DNA of 64,000 bases from a phage. This document shows, piece by piece, positions 9,171-48,511 of this stretch. The position numbers and the translations under genes were made by a program. Every line of letters starts with the position of its first letter. The first letter of the stretch is position 1. The notes below the pieces were generated by a model. It worked only from the letters and a program-made list of their open reading frames with translations. It was not told where the DNA came from and did no database searches. The stretch is from sequence record PZ338878.1, one strand, 5' to 3'.

Positions 9171-9178
9171 GGAAAATA

Positions 9179-11346: not shown

Positions 11347-13662
11347 ATGTCAACTACAATTACTAATTTACCCGAAACATCAAAAGTTAATGGTTCTGAT
11401 TACCTGGTTTTAGACCAACCTGATAAGACTGTTAAAAGCACAGTTTCCAACTTTCTTACTAACACTGGGGTGGTTGCTGCGGGGAGTTATACACCTAGAA
11501 CATTAGCCGATAGATTTGCTGATGTATTTAACGTTAAAGACTTTGGTGCAATTGGTGATGGAGTTACCGATGATACAGCAGCACTGCAAGCAGCAATAGG
11601 CGCAGCAGCAACTTCTGGTGTAAAACTGATATGGCCTGCTGGTACTTACTTGTTCACCAAACTTAGTAGCACTATTAGATATGGAGCATACAATTGGGAG
11701 GCAATAGGTCACGTAGAGCTTATCAGCACAGCTAACCCTGTCGGTGAAGCAGGTCAGGCTATACTACTAAGCGGAGCTTATAGTTCAGATCTGCTAAGTT
11801 TCGAGGAATATGATGTTAAGAAAGGTGATAGATCTATTACCTTAAATAAGGTACTTGATGCATCTACAAAAGACCTCATCGTGATTCGTAATAAGCACGT
11901 TGTACGAGGTGATCATCGTGGTAGCTGGCAAGAAGGTCAAATATCAGGTATTACAAAAGTAGAAGGAAATACCATTATGTTAGACCAGAATGCGCAGTAT
12001 TACTATAGGTCTGGTGGTAACTTCCATTTCACAGTTACTGGTGCGGAAAGTGGACGCAAGTTTTCTGCTGCTGAGTTTTCTGTTACCAACCCGCCACGTG
12101 ATGCATTATATCGTATCACAGGAACAACCGGTGTTAATGCTGGTATAACAAAGGTTGTAACAGCATATGATGATGCAACTAAGACCTTCACCATAGGTTC
12201 TGATGCAAACACAGGGTTCCCTAATACACCAGCAGTTGGTGATCAGTTCTTACTAGATAGGAAAGCAGAGGCTTGGTTGGTATACCCAGCAACTGTACAC
12301 ATTTCTGGTGACTTCGTACTTAAGACACAGCGTGGCCTTATTACAGATGCAGAAAAAGGTTCTCTCGCATGGGATGGACTTGTTCTAAGATATTGCCGTG
12401 ACAGCAAGATACAACTTGGTGGTGTACACAATTTCCCTAACTCAGGTGTTACAGTGAATATGTCATTGCGTGTTCATGTCAATGTAAGTAATATTACTGG
12501 GGCTAACAGGGTGTGGGATGGGTCAGGAGGCTCTGGTAATGCGGTATCCATTAACACCAGTAGCTTCTGCATAGTAGAAGGTCTGTCTTCGACAGGTTGC
12601 CGAAGGGGTGTAGATGTCACCGGTAGTAACTGGTCTAGTTTCTATAACATGATTAAAGACATCTCTGTGAGAGGGGGTGGCGTAGGTTTCACAGGTCAAT
12701 CTATCTTCCCACAGATAGGGTCTGCTGCTGATTGCTATGGAGTGGGCAGTCATGGCGGAGCTGTAGGTACAATGTATGATGGATGTGATTTAGTGGATTG
12801 CACTATACCATTTACCATACGTGGTTTTGATGAGAGTATTCAGAATAGTACAATTCGTGGGTATTGCTCTCAGCCAATTCGCCTGTATTACGCAAGCGGG
12901 TGCTACATTAACAATGTTACATACTCTGACGGTTTCACAGAAACTAAAGGGAGCACTAGCGAGTGGCAGACGATTACAACGACAGAGTACCGTAAGTTAC
13001 GACCAATTAGTTTCTTGACTATCACAGATACTTGGTCTTTTGAAACACCAACTGTAGTGGAGAATTGTGTTGCCAAATCTATTACTCGCTCTTTTGCTTA
13101 TGTAACAACAAAGGAAGAACAGCTAGATAACTTGGTACTTAAGGGTTGTATAGCTTATGTGGATAACTATGGCGCATCTACCACTGATGCAGCTTTCTTG
13201 CAAGTGATTGGTACTCCAGAGTTCCTAGGTAATATAGGTATGTTTGGTGGATGTGATCTTATTTTAGTTGGTTCAAACAACACAGTAAGCTCAAGTCAAA
13301 TGGTGAGAATTGCCTCCGCTTGTACTGGTATCATCCGCAGAAGTGAGACATTGTGGGAAGTAAGGATTAATTCAGGAGAGCAGAAGCGTGTGCCTCTTTC
13401 GAAAACATCTTCTATGCTTCTTGTAGATGTAGCTAACATGGGCAACCCAGGTAACTATAGTGCTTGCAATGTAATCATGGGTAAGGACGATGCAACCGAT
13501 TACTCGCCACTAAGCTCCTTCAACAAGAATAAGGTAGAGTTGCGAGATACTGGAGGGGCAACTGCCGGCACTCTTGCCTTATGGTTTTCTGGTAACAAGC
13601 TAGGAATAACTAATGGTTTCGGAGGAAAAGCTAATATACTTATAGATATTAGATCGTTCTAA
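11347..13662 (+). CDS. tailspike protein with pectate-lyase-like beta-helix domain (depolymerase 1)
   Basis: FGAIGDGVTDDTAALQAAI motif typical of pectate_lyase_3 / right-handed beta-helix tailspikes; fibre-type N-terminal motif. Confidence 0.7.
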   Translation: MSTTITNLPETSKVNGSDYLVLDQPDKTVKSTVSNFLTNTGVVAAGSYTPRTLADRFADVFNVKDFGAIGDGVTDDTAALQAAIGAAATSGVKLIWPAGTYLFTKLSSTIRYGAYNWEAIGHVELISTANPVGEAGQAILLSGAYSSDLLSFEEYDVKKGDRSITLNKVLDASTKDLIVIRNKHVVRGDHRGSWQEGQISGITKVEGNTIMLDQNAQYYYRSGGNFHFTVTGAESGRKFSAAEFSVTNPPRDALYRITGTTGVNAGITKVVTAYDDATKTFTIGSDANTGFPNTPAVGDQFLLDRKAEAWLVYPATVHISGDFVLKTQRGLITDAEKGSLAWDGLVLRYCRDSKIQLGGVHNFPNSGVTVNMSLRVHVNVSNITGANRVWDGSGGSGNAVSINTSSFCIVEGLSSTGCRRGVDVTGSNWSSFYNMIKDISVRGGGVGFTGQSIFPQIGSAADCYGVGSHGGAVGTMYDGCDLVDCTIPFTIRGFDESIQNSTIRGYCSQPIRLYYASGCYINNVTYSDGFTETKGSTSEWQTITTTEYRKLRPISFLTITDTWSFETPTVVENCVAKSITRSFAYVTTKEEQLDNLVLKGCIAYVDNYGASTTDAAFLQVIGTPEFLGNIGMFGGCDLILVGSNNTVSSSQMVRIASACTGIIRRSETLWEVRINSGEQKRVPLSKTSSMLLVDVANMGNPGNYSACNVIMGKDDATDYSPLSSFNKNKVELRDTGGATAGTLALWFSGNKLGITNGFGGKANILIDIRSF

Positions 13663-36586: not shown

Positions 36587-37150
36587 TTAAATAATTTTAT
36601 TCATGTCTTGACAATGTAAAAGGTGTGAAACAGCTTTTCTAGGATCATCGTTACCTAAACGGTATGTGTGAAATAAATATAACCCACGTAGTAAACCTAG
36701 CCTTTTATTGTTAGCGTGTAATGCTTTAGAGAAAATTATATCAAACTGTATTGATCTTTCCTCAAAAGGGATTTCATTCCACAGACTCTTACGAAAGAGA
36801 AGAAAGAATCCTGCTAAGATAGCATCTGTAGGTACTTCCTCTATTGAGTTTCCCCATTCTAGATGTGCTCTTTTTGCAATCTCAATGTGGTGTAATATAT
36901 TTGGATCTTCACTTCTTTCATTATTAAATAATTGATATGTTGATCCCAATCTATTACAAGATGCACCAAGAACATCAAAATCAGGATTTGAACGGACTAT
37001 TGATTCCAACCAAGCAGGTTGTTCTGGAAGAAGAAACATTGTATCAATGTCTCTTAGGCAAATCCAACTATCTTCTGGTAAGACACTTATTGTGTCATTG
37101 ATACCTTTTCCAATATCTCCAGAAAGATAGGGAGTTATGTGAAATATCAT
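36587..37150 (-). CDS. hypothetical protein, possibly glycosyltransferase-like
   Basis: 187 aa; LRDIDTMFL acidic motif; adjacent to glycosyltransferase genes. Confidence 0.3.
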   Translation of the reverse strand: MIFHITPYLSGDIGKGINDTISVLPEDSWICLRDIDTMFLLPEQPAWLESIVRSNPDFDVLGASCNRLGSTYQLFNNERSEDPNILHHIEIAKRAHLEWGNSIEEVPTDAILAGFFLLFRKSLWNEIPFEERSIQFDIIFSKALHANNKRLGLLRGLYLFHTYRLGNDDPRKAVSHLLHCQDMNKII

Positions 37151-37207
37151 ACTCCCTCCGTATTATTACTTTAGCATTTTTAGACTAAAAAGTCCAAATG
37201 GTTTTAC

Positions 37208-37402
37208 CTATTGATTACGTTTTGCGAGTTCCATCTGGATAGCTAAACTGTGATCTCGTGCTTCCATATACTCTTTATATGTTTCATTAAGATGATCACG
37301 ACAAACATCACGCAGTTTAATCAGTTTATCTGTAGGGATACCACTAAGATCATCCCAAGACTTTACAACTTCACCAGTATCATTGATCCCAATGGTTTTC
37401 AT
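37208..37402 (-). CDS. hypothetical protein
   Basis: 64 aa ORF. Confidence 0.35.
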   Translation of the reverse strand: MKTIGINDTGEVVKSWDDLSGIPTDKLIKLRDVCRDHLNETYKEYMEARDHSLAIQMELAKRNQ

Positions 37403-37610
37403 CTACAACCTCCTTAATTGCTACAGCACAGTTTTTGCAGATACACTGCCCTTTACCTTTAGAAATCTGGATGTAAGGTTCATTTTCATTTTCGCCCTTA
37501 CGTGAGTCATATATTACAGAATTGAAGCACACAACGCAAATATTTTTTAAGATTGTATACTTATCAACTTTCTTTTTTGTTTTAAAGTTAACTTCAATAA
37601 CATCAGCCAT
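37380..37610 (-). CDS. zinc-ribbon protein
   Basis: ORF-track 37380-37658 trimmed to internal Met; CVVCFNSV ... CICKNCAV four-Cys arrangement. Confidence 0.4.
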   Translation of the reverse strand: MADVIEVNFKTKKKVDKYTILKNICVVCFNSVIYDSRKGENENEPYIQISKGKGQCICKNCAVAIKEVVDENHWDQ

Positions 37611-37888
37611 CAGTGTAACACTCCCAGTATGTTGTTTTGTGACATAACCATAGAACATTCAACATTATCGTGACTACGTGAAAAACGTTCCCAAACATCT
37701 TCATCGACTCGTAAAGCTATACAAGGATAGACGTTATCATTGATCATTTCAATTGAATAAACATCCACATTGTCTTCGTCTTCGATGAACATCATTGCAA
37801 ACTGTTCTAAATGTTTCCTAATGTAATGTACATCCTCTTCTGTAAGACCAATAACAAGATAACTTGCAACGATAACGCCATCTTTCAT
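37610..37888 (-). CDS. hypothetical protein
   Basis: 92 aa acidic ORF. Confidence 0.4.
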   Translation of the reverse strand: MKDGVIVASYLVIGLTEEDVHYIRKHLEQFAMMFIEDEDNVDVYSIEMINDNVYPCIALRVDEDVWERFSRSHDNVECSMVMSQNNILGVLH

Positions 37889-37898
37889 CTATATCTCC

Positions 37899-38408
37899 TT
37901 AGCGATAGAATTGATGTTCTTTGTAGCGGTACACTAGAACCATATCTTTTTCCCAGTGTGCTCTTATTGTAGATTTTTTAAAGTATAATGCTCCTTTTGT
38001 AATATCTAATGCAATTCGTAATTCTGGAAAATGGTTATCGAGATAAAGTAGACGTTCTGCTATAGCTTTAGCGTCTTTCCACTTATCGTGTTCCATAACG
38101 TTGAATGTCTTCGTGTAAGAGAATTGTCCTTTTTGAAACAAAACTTCTTTTATAGTATCAGGGAAATATGAATCTCTCGCCCTATTCAATACTACATTAC
38201 CAACAGCAGACATACCGCGCTTTCCTTGATTACGACTTTCTGCATAGATTGCACAAGCTAATAGATTTTCTTTACTATCACGCTTTGTACACTTGTGAAC
38301 TACTTTAGCAGTTTTTACGTTTGCAGCTTCGGCTTGCGCCACAACAGGTGTAAATGTAAAAGCAGTTAAGGATAGTAACGCAATTGCGACAAAGGTTTTT
38401 ATTGACAA
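37899..38408 (-). CDS. secreted cell-wall hydrolase, SleB/Hydrolase_2 family (candidate endolysin)
   Basis: N-terminal signal peptide (MSIKTFVAIALLSLTAFTFTPVVAQA); CAIYAESRNQGKRGMSAVGNVVLNRARDSYFPDTIKEVLFQKGQFSY resembles SleB-type hydrolases. Confidence 0.65.
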   Translation of the reverse strand: MSIKTFVAIALLSLTAFTFTPVVAQAEAANVKTAKVVHKCTKRDSKENLLACAIYAESRNQGKRGMSAVGNVVLNRARDSYFPDTIKEVLFQKGQFSYTKTFNVMEHDKWKDAKAIAERLLYLDNHFPELRIALDITKGALYFKKSTIRAHWEKDMVLVYRYKEHQFYR

Positions 38409-38471
38409 ACTTGCCTCCTATTTTGTTAAACGAACTTTTATTGTAACACAGAAGAGGCTATTTTGCAAGTG

Positions 38472-38490
38472 GAGGGGGATAATCCCCCTC
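38472..38490 (-). terminator. GC-rich hairpin (terminator or processing site)
   Basis: GAGGGGGA-TAA-TCCCCCTC perfect stem-loop between the 38501 gene and the hydrolase gene; no clear U-tract. Confidence 0.35.
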
Positions 38491-38500
38491 TTACACTCTG

Positions 38501-39103
38501 TTAGATATTGTAAACCTTTGTATGAGTTACTACACCATCTTCTACAAAATCAATACGTTCTTGATCCGTAACTAGTGCAGACAACACTTTAAATTTAATT
38601 TTTACACGTTCAAAAGCTGGTTGACCATCTTTAAGATAATTATGTTCAGTTGTCACTGTCTTGTTTACAAAATCAACTTTTGCTTTACCGTTCTCGCGTA
38701 AGTGGAATGTTTTTCCTGCTTTATACACAATTTCAACATTACCTTCGAGAGTAATTCCTTCAAAAAGTTCACCCTCTTCTTCATTTTCTTCACTTTTGAA
38801 CAGACGACGAAACTCTTCCATATCAAGATAAACAACATCTTCAGAATAACTATCAGTAAGATATGTCTTACCCTCCATTAACCCGAAATATTGCCAGATT
38901 GCCGAATAAACATCACTAGATGATCCAAGGGTTTCTCTGAGTTTAGTTCCACGGATTACTTCATAAACTTCAAAATTGAAACCAGACTGCAAAGCATCAA
39001 ACAGCACATCACTAACTTCTAAAGCATAATCTTCATTGTTGTCAATATCTACAAGAAAATTGCCGCTACGAATAAGTTTTTGACCTTCTAAAGTAATACT
39101 CAT
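38501..39103 (-). CDS. hypothetical protein
   Basis: 200 aa acidic ORF. Confidence 0.45.
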   Translation of the reverse strand: MSITLEGQKLIRSGNFLVDIDNNEDYALEVSDVLFDALQSGFNFEVYEVIRGTKLRETLGSSSDVYSAIWQYFGLMEGKTYLTDSYSEDVVYLDMEEFRRLFKSEENEEEGELFEGITLEGNVEIVYKAGKTFHLRENGKAKVDFVNKTVTTEHNYLKDGQPAFERVKIKFKVLSALVTDQERIDFVEDGVVTHTKVYNI

Positions 39104-39119
39104 TGTTTTCTCCTCTTTT

Positions 39120-39150
39120 ATTTCAAATATGCGCCCCGAAGGGCGCTATG
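39120..39150 (-). terminator. terminator-like hairpin downstream of terD-like gene
   Basis: GCGCCC-CGAA-GGGCGC followed on the minus strand by a T-rich run. Confidence 0.5.
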
Positions 39151-39167
39151 ATTTATTACTTGATGTA

Positions 39168-39764
39168 TTACTCGAACCAATCGTCGCCAGCGCCAAACGC
39201 TTTAACTACATCGTAAATGTCAAGCCCAGCTTTACCTACACCATATGCTTTCAGTTTCCATTCGCTATCTTCTCGCACCAGGGAGGCAACGTGGCAAATG
39301 GTGTTACCTGCAAGTTCTGGAGCCAAGAAGTCAAAGTCCAGCAGTTCAACATTACGTTCATCATCGAAGATTTTAAGGAAACCTTCGGTAGCGTGACCAA
39401 GGCGTTTCTTACCCGTTTCGTCATCAATAGTAATTACGAATGCAATTTCCTGTGCTTCAGCAGAGATATTATCCAGTGTAACATCAATCTGCTCCATCTG
39501 TCCTACACCATCACGAACATCTTCACCTGCAAAAGTAGAACGTTCAGGATCAAATTTCTGTGCGTAGCACACCAGGTGACGAGGAGACAACAGTTCCGGC
39601 AGACCAGATGCATTGTGTCGGCAAATCAGAGCACTAACATCCAGATCCAGTTTTTCGTTAGATTTCCAAGAGAATTCCAGACGAATGCGTTTCAGTGCTG
39701 GTGCGATCTTTTTCAGAGAAACTTTTTCGCTAGAACCTTTTTTCAGGGAAATTTTCTGAGTCAT
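39168..39764 (-). CDS. terD: TerD-domain protein
   Basis: ISLKKG...VSLKK, DLDVSAL, FAGEDVRDG, EIAFVITIDD, EWKLKAYGVG match TerD-family hallmarks. Confidence 0.8.
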   Translation of the reverse strand: MTQKISLKKGSSEKVSLKKIAPALKRIRLEFSWKSNEKLDLDVSALICRHNASGLPELLSPRHLVCYAQKFDPERSTFAGEDVRDGVGQMEQIDVTLDNISAEAQEIAFVITIDDETGKKRLGHATEGFLKIFDDERNVELLDFDFLAPELAGNTICHVASLVREDSEWKLKAYGVGKAGLDIYDVVKAFGAGDDWFE

Positions 39765-39837
39765 AATTTATTATCTCCTTTGTTGTTAATTTACGTTGTC
39801 TATTTTACTAATCTTTTCTACAAAGTCAAGCGTTTTT

Positions 39838-40632
39838 TTACGCTTTTGCTCCGAATTTTTTAACCCACTCACCAAACTCTTCAGATAACAATTTATCGTA
39901 AAGTTCTTCATCAGACAAGGACAAATCTGCAATACCGATAAAATCAACATTATCGTACTCTTTTGCCAAGTCTTTCAGGAATTTAAAGTTTGCATTACCT
40001 ACACCAACCATAAACCAGTAAACAGGCGTATTGCGGTGTTTGTTCAGTAAGCTACGTACTGCTGAAGTATCCATGTTTTCCCCGTCAGTTTGGAAGAAAA
40101 TCATTGCAGGAGTACGATCAACTTGTGCATCAGTATCTACAACCTGTTCTACAACAGTACGTGTTACTTCTACAAGTTCTTTTTTACCAGTTAGTTTAGC
40201 AAGGAAACCCTTAGCTGGGACTTCTTCATACTCAACGACTTCGCGTGTAATATTTTTCATAGGTACACTACCGAAGTATGTATCATAGATCTCCTGCATT
40301 ACTGGAGCATAAGCAGTACCACCATTGATGCAAACATTAGACATGCAAGAGCCGACATAATCATCATACACATCAGCCGTTGCAGGAGGCAGTTCAAAAG
40401 AAGAACTATTGAAAGCCCACATGTCAATCTGTGCATTGTCATCAAACTTCATACCAAACGGCAGCAGTTTACCTACAAAATCACTAACAGTGCCATCACG
40501 ATACAGCTCACACATACTACCCGAAATATCTAAGGCGCTACCGACACGAAGAACAACATCGTTAATCTTTTTCTTACGCAGAGATACAGTAAGAGTTTCT
40601 TGACGTTTTTTAAGACTGATTTTATTGGACAT
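39838..40632 (-). CDS. vWA-domain protein with TerD-like N-terminal motif (TerY/TerF-like)
   Basis: N-terminal ISLKKRQETLTVSLRK then MIDAS-type DISGSM. Confidence 0.6.
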   Translation of the reverse strand: MSNKISLKKRQETLTVSLRKKKINDVVLRVGSALDISGSMCELYRDGTVSDFVGKLLPFGMKFDDNAQIDMWAFNSSSFELPPATADVYDDYVGSCMSNVCINGGTAYAPVMQEIYDTYFGSVPMKNITREVVEYEEVPAKGFLAKLTGKKELVEVTRTVVEQVVDTDAQVDRTPAMIFFQTDGENMDTSAVRSLLNKHRNTPVYWFMVGVGNANFKFLKDLAKEYDNVDFIGIADLSLSDEELYDKLLSEEFGEWVKKFGAKA

Positions 40633-40633
40633 A

Positions 40634-40903
40634 TTATTTCTCCTTTCTGAGTGTAATGTTAGTAACTTCTAAATCCACTTCTACCATTTCTGTATCATAT
40701 GAAATACAGCTAAGTTGACCTCTTTGTGAACCGTTCAGACACATTGCTTGGTTTGTATTAACTTTAATAAACACTAAGTTTCTGAACGTATCTAAACCAG
40801 AATCTTGATACGCAACATAATATACGAATGTATCACCTGCGTCAAGTTCTCCAAAACATTTAGGTTCATCTGATTTATCGTCTTTGATATTAAATTTAAG
40901 CAC
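40634..40903 (-). CDS. hypothetical protein
   Basis: 89 aa. Confidence 0.4.
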   Translation of the reverse strand: MLKFNIKDDKSDEPKCFGELDAGDTFVYYVAYQDSGLDTFRNLVFIKVNTNQAMCLNGSQRGQLSCISYDTEMVEVDLEVTNITLRKEK

Positions 40904-41459
40904 TGTCTTCTCCTTTACCTGCCCTCCAGCCTAAATAGAAAGCCTCTCTGGTGATCTTTTGCAACTCGTTTAAAGAGATAGTTACAACTAAATTATCTTC
41001 AATTTCTAGCTTTGAGTCTTCTTCTGTCTCAATGCAAGTATTATGCACTTTGTGGTAAGGATTGTCAACACGTTTAAATTTATTATTTTCAGTGCTGAAG
41101 AAGCAATCTGGATCTTCTTCTCCATCACCCCAACCCTGGTTAGGGTCTTCTTCAGATCTTTCTGTTGGGATCTCACCTGTAAAGTGCTCTTCTAATACCA
41201 TAGCGATACCATCTCCAAGATCGGAAGAGAACATCAAATTACAAACTTCTTCCCAAGGCATAGACCACTTAAATCTTTTACGATTACCATGTTTATCTTC
41301 TTCGTTAGAGAAAACACTACCATAGCTATCATAATTGCCATACATCTCTTCAACAACTTTACCACCTTTCAAAAGAAATAGGTAGCAAGGAGAACCATCG
41401 AAAGAGGTAGAAAGAGCAGCATTGCCAGACTCTTTGCACAAGAAACTAAAACACCCCAT
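40896..41459 (-). CDS. hypothetical acidic protein
   Basis: 187 aa; C-terminal motif LNELQKITREAFYLGWRAG. Confidence 0.45.
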   Translation of the reverse strand: MGCFSFLCKESGNAALSTSFDGSPCYLFLLKGGKVVEEMYGNYDSYGSVFSNEEDKHGNRKRFKWSMPWEEVCNLMFSSDLGDGIAMVLEEHFTGEIPTERSEEDPNQGWGDGEEDPDCFFSTENNKFKRVDNPYHKVHNTCIETEEDSKLEIEDNLVVTISLNELQKITREAFYLGWRAGKGEDSA

Positions 41460-41659
41460 TATACACCAGCCTTAAGATCAATTAAAGCCAAAGTTGTTTC
41501 AGAATGTGTTTGCTCGTCTACAGGTGCAGTCATATGATAATACAAAAAGTCTTCGGCATCATACCAATCTGATTCTTGACCTTGTTTCCAACCATCAATG
41601 AAAGCATCCTCCATAATGGTTTGTAATTCTTCACGAGTTAAGTGAATATCTTTATTCAT
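41459..41659 (-). CDS. hypothetical protein sharing motif with upstream neighbour
   Basis: 66 aa; N-terminal LTREELQTIMEDAFIDGWKQG. Confidence 0.4.
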   Translation of the reverse strand: MNKDIHLTREELQTIMEDAFIDGWKQGQESDWYDAEDFLYYHMTAPVDEQTHSETTLALIDLKAGV

Positions 41660-41892
41660 TACACATTCTCCTCTTTTACCAATTCCATCGTTGAACTATC
41701 AAAACCATCTTTAGAAGAATAGGTATAGACAGAACGTAGTTCTCGCAGGACAGTAAATACATTAGGATCATCTAACCAAGCATCCTGGAGGAGAACATAA
41801 CGATCTTCATTGTCATACTGGACAGCAATCATAGAACCAGACAGTTTGTAAATTTTAATATTCATAATATATTTCTCCTTAAAGTAGACCAC
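41659..41892 (-). CDS. hypothetical protein
   Basis: 77 aa. Confidence 0.4.
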   Translation of the reverse strand: MVYFKEKYIMNIKIYKLSGSMIAVQYDNEDRYVLLQDAWLDDPNVFTVLRELRSVYTYSSKDGFDSSTMELVKEENV

Positions 41893-42982
41893 GTTTAACA
41901 GTTTGAATCATACCATCTTCAAGAGATTGCACTTCTTGAATGTAATCAATACGAGCAGCACGGGCTTCAGTGTTGATTCGGTTAGTTTCTTCCAACATTT
42001 TAACTAAGTTTTCTTGATCGCGACGTAATGTTTCAATATCCAATACTTGACGATTAGCAAGTTGCGTAGCTTCAATTTGGTTTTGTGCAGCCAGATCACT
42101 ACCCATTGCAATAGCAGCATTAAATTCATTCAGTACATTGTTCTGTGTATCGGCTGCTTTCTTCTGGCGTAGACTTTCAATATACATAGAAAAGTTTGCA
42201 GAGTAAGCAGGAATAACATTATTCACAATATTACGGGCTGATCGCATCAAACTTGCAGATACTTTCTGCATACTTTGTACACGTGGCCCCATCTGAACAC
42301 ACAGTAAACGCAAGGCTTTCAGGTCTGCAATACGAATTTCAAGCAGATCCATAGTATCACGAGTACGTTGACGCTCTTCTACTTCATTTTCAGGTAGTGT
42401 ATTAAGGCGAACTTCTTCTTTTTCATAAGTAGCTGTTAGAAGCTCTATATCCCTGTTTAAGCTAAGAGCATATTTTGCAATAGCCTCTTCTAAACGTTGC
42501 AGATATCGTAAAGAATCTTCTTCTTTTTTCAAGTCTGTTTGGAGTGTCTTTACCAAACCTTCAATACGATTATTGATGGTGTCAAATTCACCAAACAAAT
42601 CTTCTTTCATACCTAATACTTTCTTAACTAGTTTACCTAAGCCTTTAGATTGTTTAATAGAATTAGGATCAAGTTGCTTTGCTTGCTTAATAAGTGCAGT
42701 TAAACGCTCACTCATTTCATCTCCCTGAGATGAACGCTGGTGTTTAAGCACTTCCGCATTAAGGTTACGAAGAGTAAGTCCTGCATCAGCACCAACCTGT
42801 TCAATCTCTTCACGAGACATTGGAGGCAGCATTTGTACAGGTCGTGCAACAGCAGGGGCATATACAGGGCTTGCATCCATAGCAGTTGGAGCAAACAAAG
42901 ACTTACTTTTTTCTGTTGTTGCCGTGAATACACTCATTTCAGACGGTTTGCTTTTTACGGCACTGATAAAAGGACTGGACAT
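41879..42982 (-). CDS. telA: TelA-like toxic anion resistance family protein
   Basis: 367 aa, largely helical/coiled-coil, with size and pattern resembling TelA/KlaA; context with TerD/TerC. Confidence 0.55.
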   Translation of the reverse strand: MSSPFISAVKSKPSEMSVFTATTEKSKSLFAPTAMDASPVYAPAVARPVQMLPPMSREEIEQVGADAGLTLRNLNAEVLKHQRSSQGDEMSERLTALIKQAKQLDPNSIKQSKGLGKLVKKVLGMKEDLFGEFDTINNRIEGLVKTLQTDLKKEEDSLRYLQRLEEAIAKYALSLNRDIELLTATYEKEEVRLNTLPENEVEERQRTRDTMDLLEIRIADLKALRLLCVQMGPRVQSMQKVSASLMRSARNIVNNVIPAYSANFSMYIESLRQKKAADTQNNVLNEFNAAIAMGSDLAAQNQIEATQLANRQVLDIETLRRDQENLVKMLEETNRINTEARAARIDYIQEVQSLEDGMIQTVKRGLL

Positions 42983-43050
42983 TCAATTTCCTCCATATTC
43001 TTTAGTAGATGGTGATACCTCTGTACCACCATCATAACACAAATTAAGTA

Positions 43051-43902
43051 TTAAACAAACATATCTAAATAATTTGTAGTAATAAATGCTCCATCTGCTT
43101 CCAGATTAACATAACCAGTAGCATTAGTGGTTAAGAAATCCAGATCGAAGGACTCTTTAACACCCCGTACCTCAACACGAGAGATATCGAATACAGGTAG
43201 TGTAACAGCCTCTTCGTGCAATACCGTACCTTTGTAGGTTGCCTTAATGATAAACTTGATATTACCCGTTCCCGCATCATACAAAACACTTTCAAAGCCT
43301 TTGAGAGTATACTTATCACCAGAGGTGAAGTGCAAAGTTGCTTTGTTTACAGTACGTTTTTTACGAGGAGTTCCTTTCACACGTTTATGATCACTACGTT
43401 TTTTGTATTTAGGAATGAATACAAACGATACACTCTCAAGAAAAGTATCAACATCAAGGATTTTAATATCCTCTGTTGCAGCAAATTTTGAAGTCGTTGC
43501 ATCAAAATGCTTTGCTCTGCGATCATACATAAAGATATCAAACCGATCTTCTAAATCAAACAAATTGTGTATCTTAATTTCAGAATGCTTGCACATTGCA
43601 GCAACCTTAAACTCTTCAAAACGTGGGTGTTCTACAAGCTCTTCAAGTTTTACACCAAAGACAGTATATTGTTTCGAAGTTTTTTCTGGCGTTGGCATTA
43701 CAGAAGCATAATCACCGATTGCGCTTTTAAAGCAAAATTGTTCTTGACCTGTATTTTTACCAACGAATTTACAGTATTCGTCATCGTGCATACTTTCTTT
43801 GGTAGTACCAACAAACTCAAAACCATCTTTATTCTTCTCAAGAATTTCTTGATTAAAGATCCAACCTTCCAGGCGATACACTTTACCAACTTCTAGTTTC
43901 AT
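43051..43902 (-). CDS. hypothetical protein
   Basis: 283 aa; basic patch KKRSDHKRVKGTPRKKRTVNK. Confidence 0.45.
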   Translation of the reverse strand: MKLEVGKVYRLEGWIFNQEILEKNKDGFEFVGTTKESMHDDEYCKFVGKNTGQEQFCFKSAIGDYASVMPTPEKTSKQYTVFGVKLEELVEHPRFEEFKVAAMCKHSEIKIHNLFDLEDRFDIFMYDRRAKHFDATTSKFAATEDIKILDVDTFLESVSFVFIPKYKKRSDHKRVKGTPRKKRTVNKATLHFTSGDKYTLKGFESVLYDAGTGNIKFIIKATYKGTVLHEEAVTLPVFDISRVEVRGVKESFDLDFLTTNATGYVNLEADGAFITTNYLDMFV

Positions 43903-43937
43903 CTGTTTCTCCTTCTTATTTAATCTGTATTAAATTA

Positions 43938-44543
43938 TTAACGACGACGTGAGCTACTAAAACTACGTTTCGACGAAGAATAACTTTTCGAAGACTTACT
44001 ATAAGAGCTAATAGGGCTTGAGTAAGACTTACGAGCAGAGTAATCACTATTCACTTTTGTTGTTGATGGGCGTGAATACGTTTGTACACTTTGCTGCTTA
44101 ATTGTGTTTTGTTTAGTTGTTGTATATGTATTCCCTTGTTTATCATAAAAACTATGCTTTTGTGTTGTATATGATTTACTGTTAGTTGTAGGAGCAGCGT
44201 TGTTATTAATAATTGTTGTATTGCTACCGCCATCTCTATAACCACCACCGCCACTATTACCACTCAACATATGACCAAGAAGCATACCTGTAGCAAATTC
44301 ACCTACACCAGAAGAACCACTGCCGCCTCCTTGCACAACAACTGTTGAAGGCTGTGCAGGTGCTGCTTGAACAACTTGAGGTGCAGGTTGATTTACATAT
44401 TGTTCATCTACCATCTGATTTGGTGTCTGTTGGTAACGTTGGTTTTGTACATTTTCAGAATCATCACAACCTACCAGCAATGCACTACCTAAAACAACTG
44501 CAACAATAAAAGATTTAATGTTTTTCATTTGTAACCCTCTCAT
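43938..44543 (-). CDS. lipoprotein with Gly-zipper segment
   Basis: Signal peptide with lipobox (VVLGSALLVG-C); Q/P-rich linker; GGGSGSSGVGEFATGMLLGHMLSGNSGGGG; S/Y/T-rich basic C-terminus. Confidence 0.55.
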   Translation of the reverse strand: MRGLQMKNIKSFIVAVVLGSALLVGCDDSENVQNQRYQQTPNQMVDEQYVNQPAPQVVQAAPAQPSTVVVQGGGSGSSGVGEFATGMLLGHMLSGNSGGGGYRDGGSNTTIINNNAAPTTNSKSYTTQKHSFYDKQGNTYTTTKQNTIKQQSVQTYSRPSTTKVNSDYSARKSYSSPISSYSKSSKSYSSSKRSFSSSRRR

Positions 44544-44721
44544 TTAAAGTCTCGACACAATTTTTAAAATCTCTAGAGAAACAATACATCTGTTCTCCGT
44601 TCCTGTTGATAGTAATTGTATGGTTATCAACATATGTTGTCAAGATAAAAATCAAACAAAATAACCCTAAAGCAAAACAAATATTTTCAAACAGAATCCA
44701 AAGAACACGTAAAACCACCAT
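44515..44721 (-). CDS. small membrane protein
   Basis: 68 aa; N-terminal TM helix; GAGGTGA RBS; overlaps 5' end of lipoprotein ORF. Confidence 0.3.
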   Translation of the reverse strand: MVVLRVLWILFENICFALGLFCLIFILTTYVDNHTITINRNGEQMYCFSRDFKNCVETLNERVTNEKH

Positions 44722-44736
44722 CAGATCACCTCAATA

Positions 44737-44757
44737 AAGCCCCCGAAGGGGCTTAAT
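44737..44757 (-). terminator. terminator-like hairpin downstream of terC
   Basis: AAGCCCC-CGAA-GGGGCTT followed on the minus strand by TTTATT. Confidence 0.45.
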
Positions 44758-44760
44758 AAA

Positions 44761-45738
44761 TTAAGCAACAGACTGGTCTTCTTTTTCAGGGAAGATTAAA
44801 CTTGCAATAACACCCAGCCCCAGAGTACCTAACACAATATACATACTGATCGTCGGATCAATGTGTGCTGGCAGGAAACTCACTTTTGCGTGCAGAGTTT
44901 CTGCAAACGGGTGATACATCAGTTTTACACCCACAAATACCAGGACTACGATAACTGCTTTCTCCAGATGAACCAAATATTTCAGTGCAACACTAAGGAC
45001 AAAGAACAGAGCACGCAGACCTAAAATTGCACACAGCATTGAAGAAAATACAAGCAGAGGTTCTTGTGTCACTGCAATTACTGCTGGAACAGAGTCTACT
45101 GCAAAAATTACGTCAACCATTTCCATTACAAATACACAAACCAATGCAGGAGTTGCTACACGAACACCATTTTTGATTGTGAAGAACTTCTCACCATCCA
45201 TCTGATCAGATACAGGGAACAGCTTACGAACAATGCGAGTAGCCCAGTGCTTAGAGTAATCAACTTCTGCGTCATTATCTCCAGCAAATACCATTTTAGC
45301 TGCACAGAAAAGGATGACCGCACCGAAGAAGATATTAACATACCAACCCAAACTCAACAAGTAAGTGCCTACTGCTACAAACACACCTCGGAAGACAATC
45401 GCACCTGCAATACCCCAAAGTAGAATCTTGTGTTGCAAGTGTGTGCTTTTAATACCAAAACTTGCGAATACTGCCACAAATACTACTAAGTTATCTACAG
45501 AAAGAGATTTCTCCAACACATACCCACTCAAAAACAAGCTCGCAAAATCAGCACCGTGTTGGAAGTATACAAAACCATAGTAGGCTAACGATACCCCAAT
45601 CCAGAAAATTGACCAGCCAATTGCAGATTTAAATGAAATTTCTTTGTTTTCTCTGTGTCCAAAGAAATCAATACAAATCGACAAGACTAAAATACCCACT
45701 AAAACAACCACATCAATAATTGGGAAACCCAGTTGCAT
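44761..45738 (-). CDS. terC: TerC-family integral membrane protein
   Basis: 325 aa with multiple TM helices and the TerC-type LEKSLSVDNLVVF motif. Confidence 0.8.
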   Translation of the reverse strand: MQLGFPIIDVVVLVGILVLSICIDFFGHRENKEISFKSAIGWSIFWIGVSLAYYGFVYFQHGADFASLFLSGYVLEKSLSVDNLVVFVAVFASFGIKSTHLQHKILLWGIAGAIVFRGVFVAVGTYLLSLGWYVNIFFGAVILFCAAKMVFAGDNDAEVDYSKHWATRIVRKLFPVSDQMDGEKFFTIKNGVRVATPALVCVFVMEMVDVIFAVDSVPAVIAVTQEPLLVFSSMLCAILGLRALFFVLSVALKYLVHLEKAVIVVLVFVGVKLMYHPFAETLHAKVSFLPAHIDPTISMYIVLGTLGLGVIASLIFPEKEDQSVA

Positions 45739-45756
45739 TCTTTTCTCCTCTTTAAT

Positions 45757-45775
45757 GCGGAGGACAATCCTCCGC
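45757..45775 (-). promoter_or_regulatory. hairpin in terC 5' leader
   Basis: GCGGAGGA-CAA-TCCTCCGC perfect stem-loop 18 nt upstream of the terC RBS; no U-tract. Confidence 0.35.
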
Positions 45776-45815
45776 TCTATGTCGTATACTATAAACTGTT
45801 TTTAAAGAAAGTCAA

Positions 45816-46064
45816 CTAGTTCAGTTCTGTAATTTTAAGTTTATCTTCTTTGTTAATGATAGGGAAAGCTACAGCATCACCTACATCATCAATAAAGCAA
45901 ACAGCAAGACCACCTTCCACTTTGCTAACCTGACCATTAAAGGCGTGATACGGGGCAGGAACAATATCTCCATCTTCAAGGAGAATAGCCTCATAAACCT
46001 TACCAATAGTACAATCACGAGTGTTTTTAAATTTTTCAAGCACTTCAACATTTACTTTACGCAT
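45816..46064 (-). CDS. hypothetical protein
   Basis: 82 aa. Confidence 0.45.
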   Translation of the reverse strand: MRKVNVEVLEKFKNTRDCTIGKVYEAILLEDGDIVPAPYHAFNGQVSKVEGGLAVCFIDDVGDAVAFPIINKEDKLKITELN

Positions 46065-46078
46065 ATAAAGATCCTCTC

Positions 46079-46285
46079 TTATTTGTTAGATTGAAAGATA
46101 CCACGAAGTACCGCAAGAATGAACGTCACACAGACTACACTCCAAAACGTTACAGGAACATGATGCCAGTCTAAGCCGATAATGTCAATCATATAGTTGT
46201 ATGCTAAAAGCAGTAGCCAACTAGGGATTAACACAATCAAGAACACAACAATAAAACAACCTAATACTGCTAAAACACCTGCCAT
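46079..46285 (-). CDS. small membrane protein (two TM helices)
   Basis: 68 aa; VLAVLGCFIVVFLIVLIPSWLLLLAY and FWSVVCVTFILAVL. Confidence 0.45.
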   Translation of the reverse strand: MAGVLAVLGCFIVVFLIVLIPSWLLLLAYNYMIDIIGLDWHHVPVTFWSVVCVTFILAVLRGIFQSNK

Positions 46286-46294
46286 ACTTTCTCC

Positions 46295-47011
46295 TTATTT
46301 CAGTTTGTAAACAATTACATTTAAACCTTTGTTCACTAGAGTTTCTTCGATCATAAGTTTTACAATATTCCAAGAACCTCCAGCCAAACCACAACCAAGC
46401 ATTGGTAAACCTACAATTTTACCGCCTGAAGATACAACATCGTCTCCCATACTATCTAACGCATTGTAGATAGCTTCATAATTCAGGTCACGCTTACCTT
46501 CCTCACGACGACTATAACCATATTGTCCATATAAATTATAAATTGTCAAATTGTTTTCTGTATACTTAGTAAACGTACCTAATTTTTTATAATCACCACG
46601 TTTAGTGGCACAATCTGCTTTAAACGCACCAGGCCACTTGCTTTTAATTTTTGGTGCAATACCACTACCCATAGTGCAAAAACAGTTACAGCAGTGTGCT
46701 ATAGCGTCTATATCGCCTCTCTCTGCTGCTGCTAAAAGATCACCGTATACCTCAATGATACCTGGTGGATAACTTGTTACAATTTCATCTTCCCAGTACA
46801 TTTGCTCTACACCACCGATCAGTGCAAAGTTTTGTGTGATGCGATCATCAATATAATTAAGACCTGAAACATACACAGCATATTCATCCTGTGCTGTAAT
46901 GCCTTGTACACGAATTCTTAAGACACCATCTTTATCTGTTGCTACACGCCCAAAATCTTTTTCTGTAATATTGGTGATAGGATCTCCGAAAGTCGTCACT
47001 TTATTAGACAT
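46295..47011 (-). CDS. macro-domain protein (ADP-ribose binding/processing)
   Basis: ORF-track 46295-47077, start at internal ATG with AAAGGGGA RBS; GDIDAIAHCCNCFCTMGSGIAPKI and LPMLGCGLAGGSW resemble macro-domain motifs. Confidence 0.55.
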   Translation of the reverse strand: MSNKVTTFGDPITNITEKDFGRVATDKDGVLRIRVQGITAQDEYAVYVSGLNYIDDRITQNFALIGGVEQMYWEDEIVTSYPPGIIEVYGDLLAAAERGDIDAIAHCCNCFCTMGSGIAPKIKSKWPGAFKADCATKRGDYKKLGTFTKYTENNLTIYNLYGQYGYSRREEGKRDLNYEAIYNALDSMGDDVVSSGGKIVGLPMLGCGLAGGSWNIVKLMIEETLVNKGLNVIVYKLK

Positions 47012-47073
47012 AATAATCCCCTTTAACATTAGATTTGTTGATAATGTTGCTTTCAAAAAATTGACGCAGGAAA

Positions 47074-47862
47074 TCAAAGTTCTCTTTGTATTTTTTCAAT
47101 ATTATTGTAACCTTCTGCAAGGCAACCAAAGAACAGTTGTTCTACATAATACAAAGGAAGTTGTGAAAGTGCAATTTTAAAATCAACTTCGCTTTGACTC
47201 ATTAGATACTTAATAGGACGAACCAAACATTTAGCATCAGTTTCTTGCTTAATCATTTTAATAAAAGCTGCCAAGTTATTGATATAGTTGAAGTTAAGTG
47301 CAGCTTCGGTGTTGGCTTCTGTACCTTCATACTTTGCAAAGTACAGGAAAAACGTATCGTTTTCAACACCTTCTTTGTCTAAAATTTCAATAAGTTTTTC
47401 TTCGTGTGTTCCTGTAATATTAACATCATCAATGAAAATCAGAGTTTTATTACCCCAGAAATCACGATTGATAGAGAAAGTGTCACCATCGATCAAAGCC
47501 TTACGATCTTCTTTGCTAAGAAATCCATAATCATTGATATAACTCACTTTACGATGAACGATATCCCACTCTACTGCTTTACCTCCTTTGATAGAGATTA
47601 GGTAGTTGAGGTGATCTACAAAATGCTCAGATAACACTGTAGCTGCATTTTTCACATAGTTATATGGAGATGGAATAACAACAAAACTTTCATTTGCCAG
47701 TCGTTCTTCATACTTAGAAAAGAAACTTTCAGCCAAAATGCGCCCCATTCTTTTTGCTGCCTGGTTACTACCAAACTTTAGTTTGGAATAATCTGCAATA
47801 TTAAATTTTGCTTCCTTCAGGTTAGTAAAAGTATTAGCAAAATGTTGAATTTGATTACGCAT
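47074..47862 (-). CDS. phosphoribosyltransferase (PRTase)-like protein
   Basis: PRPP-binding-type motif KTLIFIDDVNITGTHEEK. Confidence 0.6.
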   Translation of the reverse strand: MRNQIQHFANTFTNLKEAKFNIADYSKLKFGSNQAAKRMGRILAESFFSKYEERLANESFVVIPSPYNYVKNAATVLSEHFVDHLNYLISIKGGKAVEWDIVHRKVSYINDYGFLSKEDRKALIDGDTFSINRDFWGNKTLIFIDDVNITGTHEEKLIEILDKEGVENDTFFLYFAKYEGTEANTEAALNFNYINNLAAFIKMIKQETDAKCLVRPIKYLMSQSEVDFKIALSQLPLYYVEQLFFGCLAEGYNNIEKIQREL

Positions 47863-48511
47863 TAATAAGTTCCTCTTTTTTAAGTTTAGCCAACAAGTCT
47901 TCTGGATTAATAATATGACAGAACTTCATCCCTATGTCAACAGCTTTTCCATCATAAATCAAACTATCTCCAACGTGTAAAATCTCCTCTGGTGCGAGAT
48001 CAAACGTTACCATTTCATCAAAAGAGAGTTTAAAAAACCTAGGATCTGGTTTACACAAGCAAAACTCATCAGAAAAATGCATAAAGTCAAATGGTAATTT
48101 TGTTAAGCCAGAATATACAGCTAAGAAACTACCTGGTACAAAATTAGTATTGCTCTTAATACTCAAAGAATAGATTGAACTCAGCTCTTCCAATTTCTTG
48201 CAAAGCTCAGGGTTCAATATTGGAGGATGTTTTATAAACATTGCTAAACAGTCTCTTTTTAACCCATCCACTTTATCAAGATCAATGTTCAAACGAGTAG
48301 AAAGTGTTTCCCAAGCATTCCTAGACGTTCCACAAATGCCTTTTTCTGCTTTTAAATCCAGGAGAGTTTTTACCTCTTTATATACGGTAGCTGCTTCTGC
48401 CTCAGAACAAGAGGCATACTCGGCAATAACCTTGTTGCGTTCTTCTGCATACAAAGGATTAGCAGTAATAAGAGTATTCCATACATCAAAAGAAATATGC
48501 TTAACAGTCAT
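47855..48511 (-). CDS. HAD-superfamily hydrolase-like protein
   Basis: ORF-track 47855-48529, start at ATG 48511 after GGAGG; motif I-like FDVWNTL, motif III K in CKPDPRFF, motif IV HVGDSLIYD. Confidence 0.5.
   Translation of the reverse strand: MTVKHISFDVWNTLITANPLYAEERNKVIAEYASCSEAEAATVYKEVKTLLDLKAEKGICGTSRNAWETLSTRLNIDLDKVDGLKRDCLAMFIKHPPILNPELCKKLEELSSIYSLSIKSNTNFVPGSFLAVYSGLTKLPFDFMHFSDEFCLCKPDPRFFKLSFDEMVTFDLAPEEILHVGDSLIYDGKAVDIGMKFCHIINPEDLLAKLKKEELINA

Follow-up and report, generated by a model that had tools for sequence, protein, structure and literature searches.

A standalone TerF-type vWA protein of a phi92-like coliphage and the signature it shares with TerD

The DNA analysed here, a stretch of 64,000 nucleotides from record PZ338878.1 (the window), carries a gene for a 264-residue vWA protein next to a gene for a TerD protein, and the two products begin alike. 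An earlier note on the sequence read this likeness as a TerD-like leader fused to a vWA domain, and from it suggested a metal-dependent partner or a decoy for TerD. The question is whether the shared start is a feature of this phage or of the protein families to which the two neighbors belong, and what it implies for the function of the vWA protein.

The two genes are as follows.

39838..40632, minus strand: vWA gene, ortholog of Phi92_gp173, encoding a standalone TerF-type vWA protein of 264 residues (from the reading frame, PF10138, AlphaFold2, and Foldseek)
39168..39764, minus strand: TerD protein of 198 residues (PF02342, E=5.1e-28; PDB 2KXT, E=8.6e-15)
39131..39146, no strand assigned: GC-rich palindromic hairpin GCGCCCCGAAGGGCGC directly behind the TerD stop codon, found in a scan for terminator-like sites; possible operon end

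The window DNA shares 97–99.7% identity with E. coli myophages of the phi92-like group (Justusliebigvirus and relatives), and the vWA protein is 100% or 99.6% identical to the products of many phi92-like phages, including Phi92_gp173, with database labels of either hypothetical or "VWA domain-containing protein". By these identities, the window belongs to a phi92-like E. coli myophage and the vWA reading frame is the ortholog of phi92_gp173. The gene has an ATG start with AGGAG ~8 nt upstream, and its product opens with MSNKISLKKRQETLTVSLRK and places DISGSM at residues 35–40, so that the reading frame, the TerD-echoing start, and the motif are as first described. The TerD gene is the next gene downstream, after a gap of 73 bp, and its product opens with MTQKISLKKGSSEKVSLKK. 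Its matches to PF02342 (E=5e-28) and to the solved TerD structures 2KXT and 3IBZ (E about 1e-14) mark it by sequence as a bona fide TerD, in agreement with the earlier note. The Ca2+-binding motif of this TerD is degenerate, so a simple Ca2+-sensor picture may not apply. The hairpin behind it is weak evidence for an operon end because terminator-like sites in the region, like promoter-like ones, occur at counts equal to shuffle expectation.

The 264-residue protein matches PF10138, "vWA found in TerF C terminus", at 133.8 bits (E=1.2e-38), where the curated gathering threshold is 29.4 bits, and the same domain is present in all 64 of its database homologs. PF10138 is the best family, as the generic Pfam VWA model stays below its own cutoff. 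The AlphaFold2 model, built on 23 homologs, has a pLDDT of 88.7 and alternates strands with helices. The best solved matches of this model in Foldseek are the MDN1 MIDAS domain, CMG2, RGLG1/2, and the copine BON1, with E about 1e-6 and a probability of 1.00. Profile search and structure prediction together allow a vWA fold to be predicted with confidence. A PDB sequence search with the vWA protein returned noise only, and no NCBIfam model matched the vWA, TerD, or TelA proteins of the window. Assignment to the copine-type vWAs was rejected, since the Copine model (PF07002) scores 16.1 bits, below its cutoff of 27, and the likeness to BON1 is structural only.

Three conserved elements surround the predicted metal site.

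40513..40530, minus strand: first MIDAS loop, D35-I-S37-G-S39-M, with D35, S37, G38, S39, and M40 invariant in the family alignment (A1)
40315..40323, minus strand: second MIDAS element, G104-G105-T106, which supplies the Thr; G104 is nearly invariant and GGT occurs in most homologs
40081..40089, minus strand: third MIDAS element, T182-D183-G184, whose Asp ends beta-4; both D183 and G184 are invariant

Alignment A1 comprises 23 homologs. T106 is presumably the MIDAS Thr, an assignment taken over from vWA domains in general. With it, D35-x-S37-x-S39, T106, and D183 make up a complete predicted MIDAS metal site. The structurally closest solved domains, the copine/RGLG/MDN1-type vWAs (8ql1, 6k83, 6kxk, and 8hmh; E about 1e-6, TM 0.52–0.58), work inside cells, where they hold acidic residues of partner proteins through the MIDAS. 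The phage protein differs from them in sequence, with an identity of 10–16%, and lacks their C2 or RING partner domains.

The closest known relative in kind is TerF of the plasmid terZABCDEF operon (WP_032610451 in NZ_CP073049), which runs terZ-terA-terB-terC-terD-terE-...-terF on an IncHI-type plasmid and shares the PF10138 vWA family. The phage protein aligns with the C-terminal half of TerF at 28.7% identity over 96% of its own length, and 2551 plasmid records hold a relative. Plasmid TerF has a DxSGSM MIDAS motif, the signature-bearing cap before beta-1 (RISLEKK...LISLAKKASVSLTK), and TerC and TerD as genomic company, all as in the phage. It differs in its N-terminal TerD-like domain, in its cap, which is long and has two helices, and in the lack of the beta arm with its Gly-Phe tip, whereas the phage protein is standalone, with a short one-helix cap and the arm present. 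Pfam finds no PF02342 match in the 264-residue protein, and its likeness to TerD is confined to residues 1–20. Because it has no TerD domain, the protein is by sequence a standalone TerF-C-type vWA and not TerF proper. Of the three families with which the earlier note proposed to align it, TerF thus matches through its vWA half and TerD at the N-terminus only, while a PADLOC search gives no TerY match.

The segment that the earlier note called a TerD-like leader is the following.

40570..40623, minus strand: N-terminal cap, residues 4–21, KISLKKRQETLTVSLRKK, which carries the Ter signature

Across 23 homologs L18 of the cap is invariant and L7, K9, and K20 are conserved in at least 90%. In the phage protein the PF10138 model starts only at residue 29, so that the cap is a conserved extension left out by Pfam. 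Neither residues 1–31 nor residues 1–93 match a TerD model in Pfam. In the AlphaFold2 model of the phage protein, residues 7–20 are a predicted helix. The same picture emerges from a TerD-vWA fusion (P0063) that was modelled independently of the phage protein, with 43 sequences and a pLDDT of 89.1. There the TerD N-terminus is a beta-hairpin of strands 3–5 and 10–12, a disordered linker (174–197) separates the TerD domain from the cap, and the cap forms helices 200–212 and 214–229 at pLDDT 90–95, followed by the vWA strand 238–244. TerD-vWA fusions keep the cap between their two domains, after the TerD domain and the disordered linker, and the cap is also retained in loci with no TerD reading frame inside the fetched flanks (6–10 kb per side). 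Canonical TerF has it, in a region that reads ...RISLEKKLETKSPRLISLAKKASVSLTKNKLETLEAAVAFVLDASGSM; so do over 60 bacterial fusion proteins, as well as proteins of phages that infect alpha-, beta-, and gamma-proteobacteria and Firmicutes. The models predict that the cap belongs to the vWA domain and is helical, not a TerD-like hairpin. Since canonical TerF carries the segment too, the TerD echo is, by its distribution, a general property of TerF-type vWA domains and not a phage-specific fusion.

The vWA and TerD genes have further Ter company in the window.

41879..42982, minus strand: TelA-family protein of 367 residues (PF05816, E=5e-34; PHROG 5890, tellurite resistance)
44761..45738, minus strand: TerC/Alx-type integral membrane protein of 325 residues (PF03741, E=1.2e-38; TIGR03718)

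The TerC protein scores 322.8 bits with NCBIfam TIGR03718 against a cutoff of 246.4, and TerC, TelA, vWA, and TerD all lie on the minus strand. Between TelA and the vWA gene are four small reading frames that overlap or are separated by 1-nt gaps, which suggests one unit of transcription and translation. An Rfam scan of 37000–48000 returned nothing, including no yybP-ykoY riboswitch before the Alx-type TerC.

Earlier papers describe terC, terD, terF-vWA, and telA clustered in phages and offer superinfection exclusion or stress tolerance as a proposal only (PMC7824862, PMC8386662, PMC9796965), and a literature search found no experimental work on these phage Ter genes. By its sequence, the window holds the four components of the phage Ter module of Iyer et al. 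2021 (PMC7824862) on one strand. Other standalone TerF-type vWAs that occur with TelA, TerC/DUF475, and TerD are CcrColossus gp221, phiKp34 gp131, PhiPsa374 gp13 (terF), and Acinetobacter ME3 gp168. In the described modules the four genes are contiguous (TelA-vWA-TerC-TerD), whereas the phi92-like clade scatters them across 6.6 kb, placing the four small reading frames between TelA and vWA and TerC upstream. Phages of Caulobacter, Brevundimonas, and Rhizobium have the contiguous order TelA-vWA-TerC/DUF475-TerD, and phage loci of Acinetobacter and Ralstonia match this gene order by size and position, though they are mostly or wholly unannotated. Among 126 fetched PF10138 loci (37 from IMG/VR, 80 from bacterial genomes, eight from annotated phages, and the window), 110 have a TerD reading frame within 10 kb. 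Where a phage locus has a standalone vWA, TelA is usually close by (31 of 44 loci), in contrast to the bacterial loci, where this holds for two of 80. From gene content, the four Ter genes are carried together by phi92-like and many unrelated phages, and the vWA gene belongs, as an already known part, to a phage Ter module that is itself known, and is ordinary in kind.

The phi92_gp173 ortholog is therefore best read as a standalone version of the TerF C-terminal vWA within a four-gene phage Ter set (TerC/Alx ... TelA ... vWA-TerD), with a cap that is the family's own and with a proposed role alongside TerD and TelA at the membrane. This account is probably correct. It leaves the shared start of the two families to be explained.

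The counterpart of the cap in the neighboring protein is a short segment at its start.

39708..39755, minus strand: N-terminal signature of TerD, KISLKKGSSEKVSLKK, which forms beta-1 and beta-2 of the TerD fold (from the translation)

In the model of fusion P0063, the TerD domain forms strands over the equivalent segment. In BLASTP, the vWA protein aligns with the TerD of the window over its first 20 residues only, with 11 of 20 identical and an E of 0.087 as a single comparison, so that in this pair of sequences alone the echo is not significant. At the family level the outcome is different. A bipartite pattern, [IVL][SNDTEQ]L.K.{2,8}[IVLF][SNDTEQ]L.K, which was written after the data were seen, matches 158 of 176 TerD reading frames (about 90%), 64 of 67 TerD-vWA fusions, and 44 of 62 standalone vWAs, or 71–96% of TerF-type vWAs, compared with one of 7052 other stop-to-stop reading frames from the same loci (1.49 million residues). 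In a canonical plasmid ter operon that was not used in designing the pattern, five of 124 reading frames match. In TerZ, TerD, and TerE the match is N-terminal; in TerA it falls at residue 203, where the second TerD domain begins, and in TerF at residue 196, in the cap.

Profile comparisons agree with these counts. In hhalign, standalone vWAs align with standalone TerDs N-terminus on N-terminus (score 34.8, P=1.3e-4, probability 54%), and the score rises to 36.9 when all vWAs are used (P=6e-5, probability 65%). For comparison, the highest score among 40 column-shuffled TerD profiles is 21.5, and a reversed profile gives 13.2. The long-form cap aligns with TerD (alignment A3) at a score of 21.2 without gaps over 28 columns, where 120 shuffles reach at most 16.5. 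HH probabilities overall range from 13 to 65%; a value of 3.5% with fusions cut to HMM match columns is low because the middle sub-motif fell among the insert columns. When the first 8, 20, or 30 residues are removed from the vWA profile, hhalign finds no N-terminal TerD match, and the resemblance to TerD therefore stops short of the vWA fold. Short motif HMMs of either family have the other family as their best non-self matches, reciprocally. TerD starts and the vWA cap also have a common spacing to the next hydrophobic strand. We regard the shared signature as real at the family level and, as the earlier note required of it, as more than low-complexity composition (one match in 7052, and hhalign scores above all shuffles), with modest statistics. 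What the TerD family (PF02342; 2KXT, 3IBZ) has in common with the vWA cap is the bipartite [IVL]-polar-L-x-K ... [IVL]-polar-L-x-K; the vWA protein has neither the beta-sandwich nor a TerD domain, and in it the shared segment is predicted to be helical.

One origin for the cap would be descent. The cap may be a relic of the first hairpin, perhaps with beta-3, of a second TerD domain in a TerA-like two-domain ancestor, reused as a helical cap, in which case the standalone phage protein would be TerF minus its TerD domain. The signature stands at residue 203 of TerA and residue 196 of TerF, in each case after N-terminal domains of similar size. The start of the second TerA domain and the TerF cap are spaced identically (ISLAKKASVSLTK is one of the pair). 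Further, the hhalign register continues into the next strand and ends in D in both families, and in two-domain TerD proteins the second domain begins with LEKR variants like those of the vWA cap. However, the descent would need a strand to become a helix, its statistical support is modest, and convergence on a common partner would give an equal pattern. A relic is possible, though on the whole we doubt it.

The likeness could also be a chance match between two segments rich in lysine, serine, and leucine. The BLASTP value of the single pair, the moderate HH probabilities, the design of the pattern after the data were seen, and the different secondary structures predicted for the cap and the TerD start would all fit a coincidence. 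Against it, one unrelated reading frame in 7052 carries a signature found in most members of both families, the out-of-sample operon has it only in its five TerD/TerF genes, and none of the 40 and none of the 120 column-shuffled profiles reaches the observed hhalign scores. The gapless, in-register alignment over 28 columns and the reciprocal retrieval by motif HMMs point the same way, and chance is an unlikely explanation.

A TerD-derived leader joined to a vWA domain in this phage, to yield a mimic of the TerD N-terminus that acts as decoy or competitor, is the reading closest to the original proposal. The two N-termini are unusually alike in this clade, with 11 of 20 residues identical at an equal offset from the start Met, and the TerD of the clade has two extra residues in the turn of its hairpin, so that its spacing comes nearer to that of the vWA protein. 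Cognate TerD and vWA motifs are also slightly more alike than shuffled pairs. This excess shrinks as related loci are collapsed, from p<2e-4 with 46 representatives to 0.006 with 22 and 0.03 with 14; the co-variation is a weak signal, confounded by lineage and composition, and is not relied on here. The Ser codons of the two motifs differ between the vWA and TerD genes (AGT versus TCC), which excludes a recent gene conversion. Above all, the cap predates this phage: it runs through the whole family, canonical TerF included, and such conservation largely refutes the fusion; its predicted structure, moreover, is a helix and not TerD-like. The N-terminal echo holds, but the fusion as a phage-specific event falls, with the cap spread across PF10138, helical in prediction, and free of any TerD Pfam match; for a decoy of TerD nothing was found in support. 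This origin is very unlikely.

TerY proteins are vWA proteins too, encoded near ter operons, but a TerY-type vWA of a TerY-P-like anti-phage signalling system (vWA, phosphatase, and kinase) is refuted and can hardly be considered, since PF10138 outranks the other Pfam families and generic VWA misses its cutoff, PADLOC defence models match neither the vWA protein nor its neighbors, including all four Ter proteins, and the reading-frame list, Pfam, and PHROG reveal no kinase or phosphatase gene in the cluster.

A standalone TerF-type vWA acting within the phage Ter set thus remains the preferred account, and a course of events can be proposed for it. During infection, the vWA protein would sit under the inner membrane next to TerC, anchored by the tip of its beta arm. 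Through a divalent cation bound at the MIDAS it would grip an acidic residue of another protein, for which TerD and/or TelA are the likeliest candidates. TerD is a plausible partner because vWA and TerD form one polypeptide in TerF, and the standalone vWA may do in trans what TerF does in cis, within a membrane complex of TerC and TelA. Such a complex could change ion handling or the envelope and so exclude competing phages or protect the infected cell. By analogy with TerF, the metal-dependent partner of TerD that the earlier note suggested is plausible. Membrane association of the vWA protein is inferred from the likeness of its arm tip to the MinD targeting sequence, and the roles assigned to TelA, TerD, and TerF-type vWA proteins are inferences too, in bacteria as well.

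More speculatively, the signature may be no coincidence, being either a leftover TerD hairpin reused as a helical cap or a segment that switches between helix and strand and docks onto TerD or a common partner. We consider this improbable. If it were true, the cap would govern the metal-dependent assembly of the Ter complex, standalone phage vWAs with a MinD-like loop would recruit that complex to the membrane, and the weak excess of likeness between cognate TerD and vWA motifs (p=0.03–0.006) would reflect co-evolution.

The gene itself is nothing new: dozens of coliphage sequences contain it in identical form, and the literature already covers phage clusters of TerC, TerD, TerF-vWA, and TelA. 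Ter systems are nevertheless mechanistically obscure though widespread in plasmids of pathogens and in phages, and handles for tests are useful. One handle is the phage module, which amounts to a naturally minimal Ter set of four genes in an E. coli phage that is easy to work with. Another is the conserved cap outside the Pfam model, with a signature as at TerD domain starts. This signature is modest, belongs to the family level, and is apparently undescribed; a literature search found no paper mentioning PF10138 or "vWA-TerF-like". The cap signature and the MinD-like loop, a third handle, are small details and constitute no new kind of system.

The loop lies in a part of the protein that sets this clade apart.

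40123..40269, minus strand: clade-specific insert, residues 122–170, predicted to form a long two-stranded beta arm
40180..40212, minus strand: tip of the arm, KGFLAKLTGKK, residues 141–151, resembling the membrane-targeting sequence of E. coli MinD

In the AlphaFold2 model, the arm consists of strands 125–139 and 151–165 with a short helix at 143–148. The insert is absent from fusions and short homologs, and many, not all, standalone homologs have some form of it. The membrane-targeting sequence of E. coli MinD is KGFLKRLFGG (PMC5471200), and the arm tip and its relatives, with variants such as KGFFNRLFGK, GFFGKLFGK, GFFGRLFGG, and TGFFGRLFGGKK, share its pattern of Gly-Phe-hydrophobic-x-basic-Leu-Phe-Gly. 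The likeness is in sequence only, and the tip is internal, on a beta arm, whereas the MinD sequence is C-terminal. The tip therefore resembles, and is a putative, MinD-type amphipathic membrane anchor. Of 54 distinct standalone sequences 29 have a Gly-Phe loop, whereas all 61 fusion sequences lack one; a stricter MinD-like pattern occurs in 14 of 62 standalone vWAs, none of 67 fusions, and four of 7228 other reading frames. The MinD-like loop, limited to standalone (mostly phage) forms and usually travelling with TelA, is apparently a small undescribed detail. Two of the four other reading frames that match the strict pattern are TelA proteins encoded beside a vWA gene.

The standalone TerF-type vWA protein carries an insert whose tip resembles a known membrane-targeting sequence, and some phage TelA proteins have a motif of this type.

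Window 40123-40269, minus strand: 49-residue insert in the vWA protein, predicted to form a long beta arm
Window 40180-40212, minus strand: arm tip KGFLAKLTGKK, with likeness to the MinD membrane-targeting sequence
L033 (fetched locus), 8907-9971: TelA protein with KGFFGKLFGK
L035 (fetched locus), 611-1645: TelA protein with KGFFGKLFGK
Window 42611-42646: KGLGKLVKKVLG in TelA, residues 113-124, at a place comparable to KGFFGKLFGK of other phage TelA proteins

As judged from sequence, the arm tip is similar to the membrane-targeting sequence of MinD, KGFLKRLFGG. Gly-Phe loops of this type are present in 29 of 54 distinct standalone family members, whereas none of the 61 TerD-vWA fusions has one. 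Some phage TelA proteins, whose genes lie immediately upstream of the vWA gene, bear an identical motif, KGFFGKLFGK, around residue 100, and a short amphipathic motif may be common to TelA and the standalone vWA protein.

The canonical ter operon of a Citrobacter plasmid (L126, NZ_CP073049) may bear on the origin of the N-terminal cap.

L126 (from NZ_CP073049), 6739-7932: TerA
L126 (from NZ_CP073049), 11458-12711: TerF

In TerA the Ter signature is positioned at residue 203, where the second TerD domain begins, and in TerF at residue 196, in the vWA cap. The N-terminal domains preceding the signature are similar in size in both proteins, a hint that the TerF cap is a possible leftover of a second TerD domain.

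The phage TerD departs from Klebsiella TerD (2KXT) at one motif.

Window 39489-39527, minus strand: GEDVRDGVGQMEQ in TerD, residues 80-92, compared with 2KXT

At this position the Klebsiella protein has GDNRTGEGDGDDE, the canonical Ca2+-binding motif. TerD proteins of the phi92-like clade are two residues shorter here and have lost most of the acidic residues, and the canonical form is kept in 98 of the 243 TerD ORFs of the data set.

Other phages have a contiguous Ter module, while that of the window phage is split by small ORFs.

Window 40634-41892, minus strand: group of four small ORFs, of 77, 66, 187, and 89 aa, between TelA and the vWA gene
Window 39802-39829: sigma-70-like site (10/12) in the 73-bp vWA-TerD gap
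Window 39131-39146: perfect GC-rich palindrome GCGCCCCGAAGGGCGC after the TerD stop codon
Window 38501-39103, minus strand: protein of 200 aa (PHROG 22473) immediately downstream of TerD

The four ORFs are tightly packed, with overlaps or 1-nt gaps, and their PHROGs, where scanned, are of unknown function; phAPEC8 carries a set that resembles this one without matching it exactly. Counts of promoter- and terminator-like sites in the region are not above shuffle expectation. The 200-aa protein has no Pfam match and, unlike the window phage, phAPEC8 lacks a counterpart at the corresponding place, where the SleB-like hydrolase follows TerD.

The phage TerC (window 44761-45815 region) is a member of the Alx subfamily, with 322.8 bits for TIGR03718. 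The gap upstream of it is only ~77 nt and contains a promoter-like site; an Rfam scan of 37000-48000 gave no RNA family match, hence no yybP-ykoY riboswitch.

Window 43938-44543, minus strand: Ser/Gly/Thr-rich protein of 201 aa between TerC and TelA

This protein has no Pfam match. It contains a signal peptide, together with LLVGCDD, which is lipobox-like, and may be a phage lipoprotein, in which case it would merit attention in connection with envelope modification or exclusion.

Public records label the vWA gene differently. An identical gene in phage Eryne (PQ529420) is called ‘HNH endonuclease’, and the 66.8%-identical orthologs of phiWec188 and phiWec181 (LC739537/LC739534) are called ‘ycbR’. 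Because the vWA protein is assigned to PF10138, both labels look like annotation errors.
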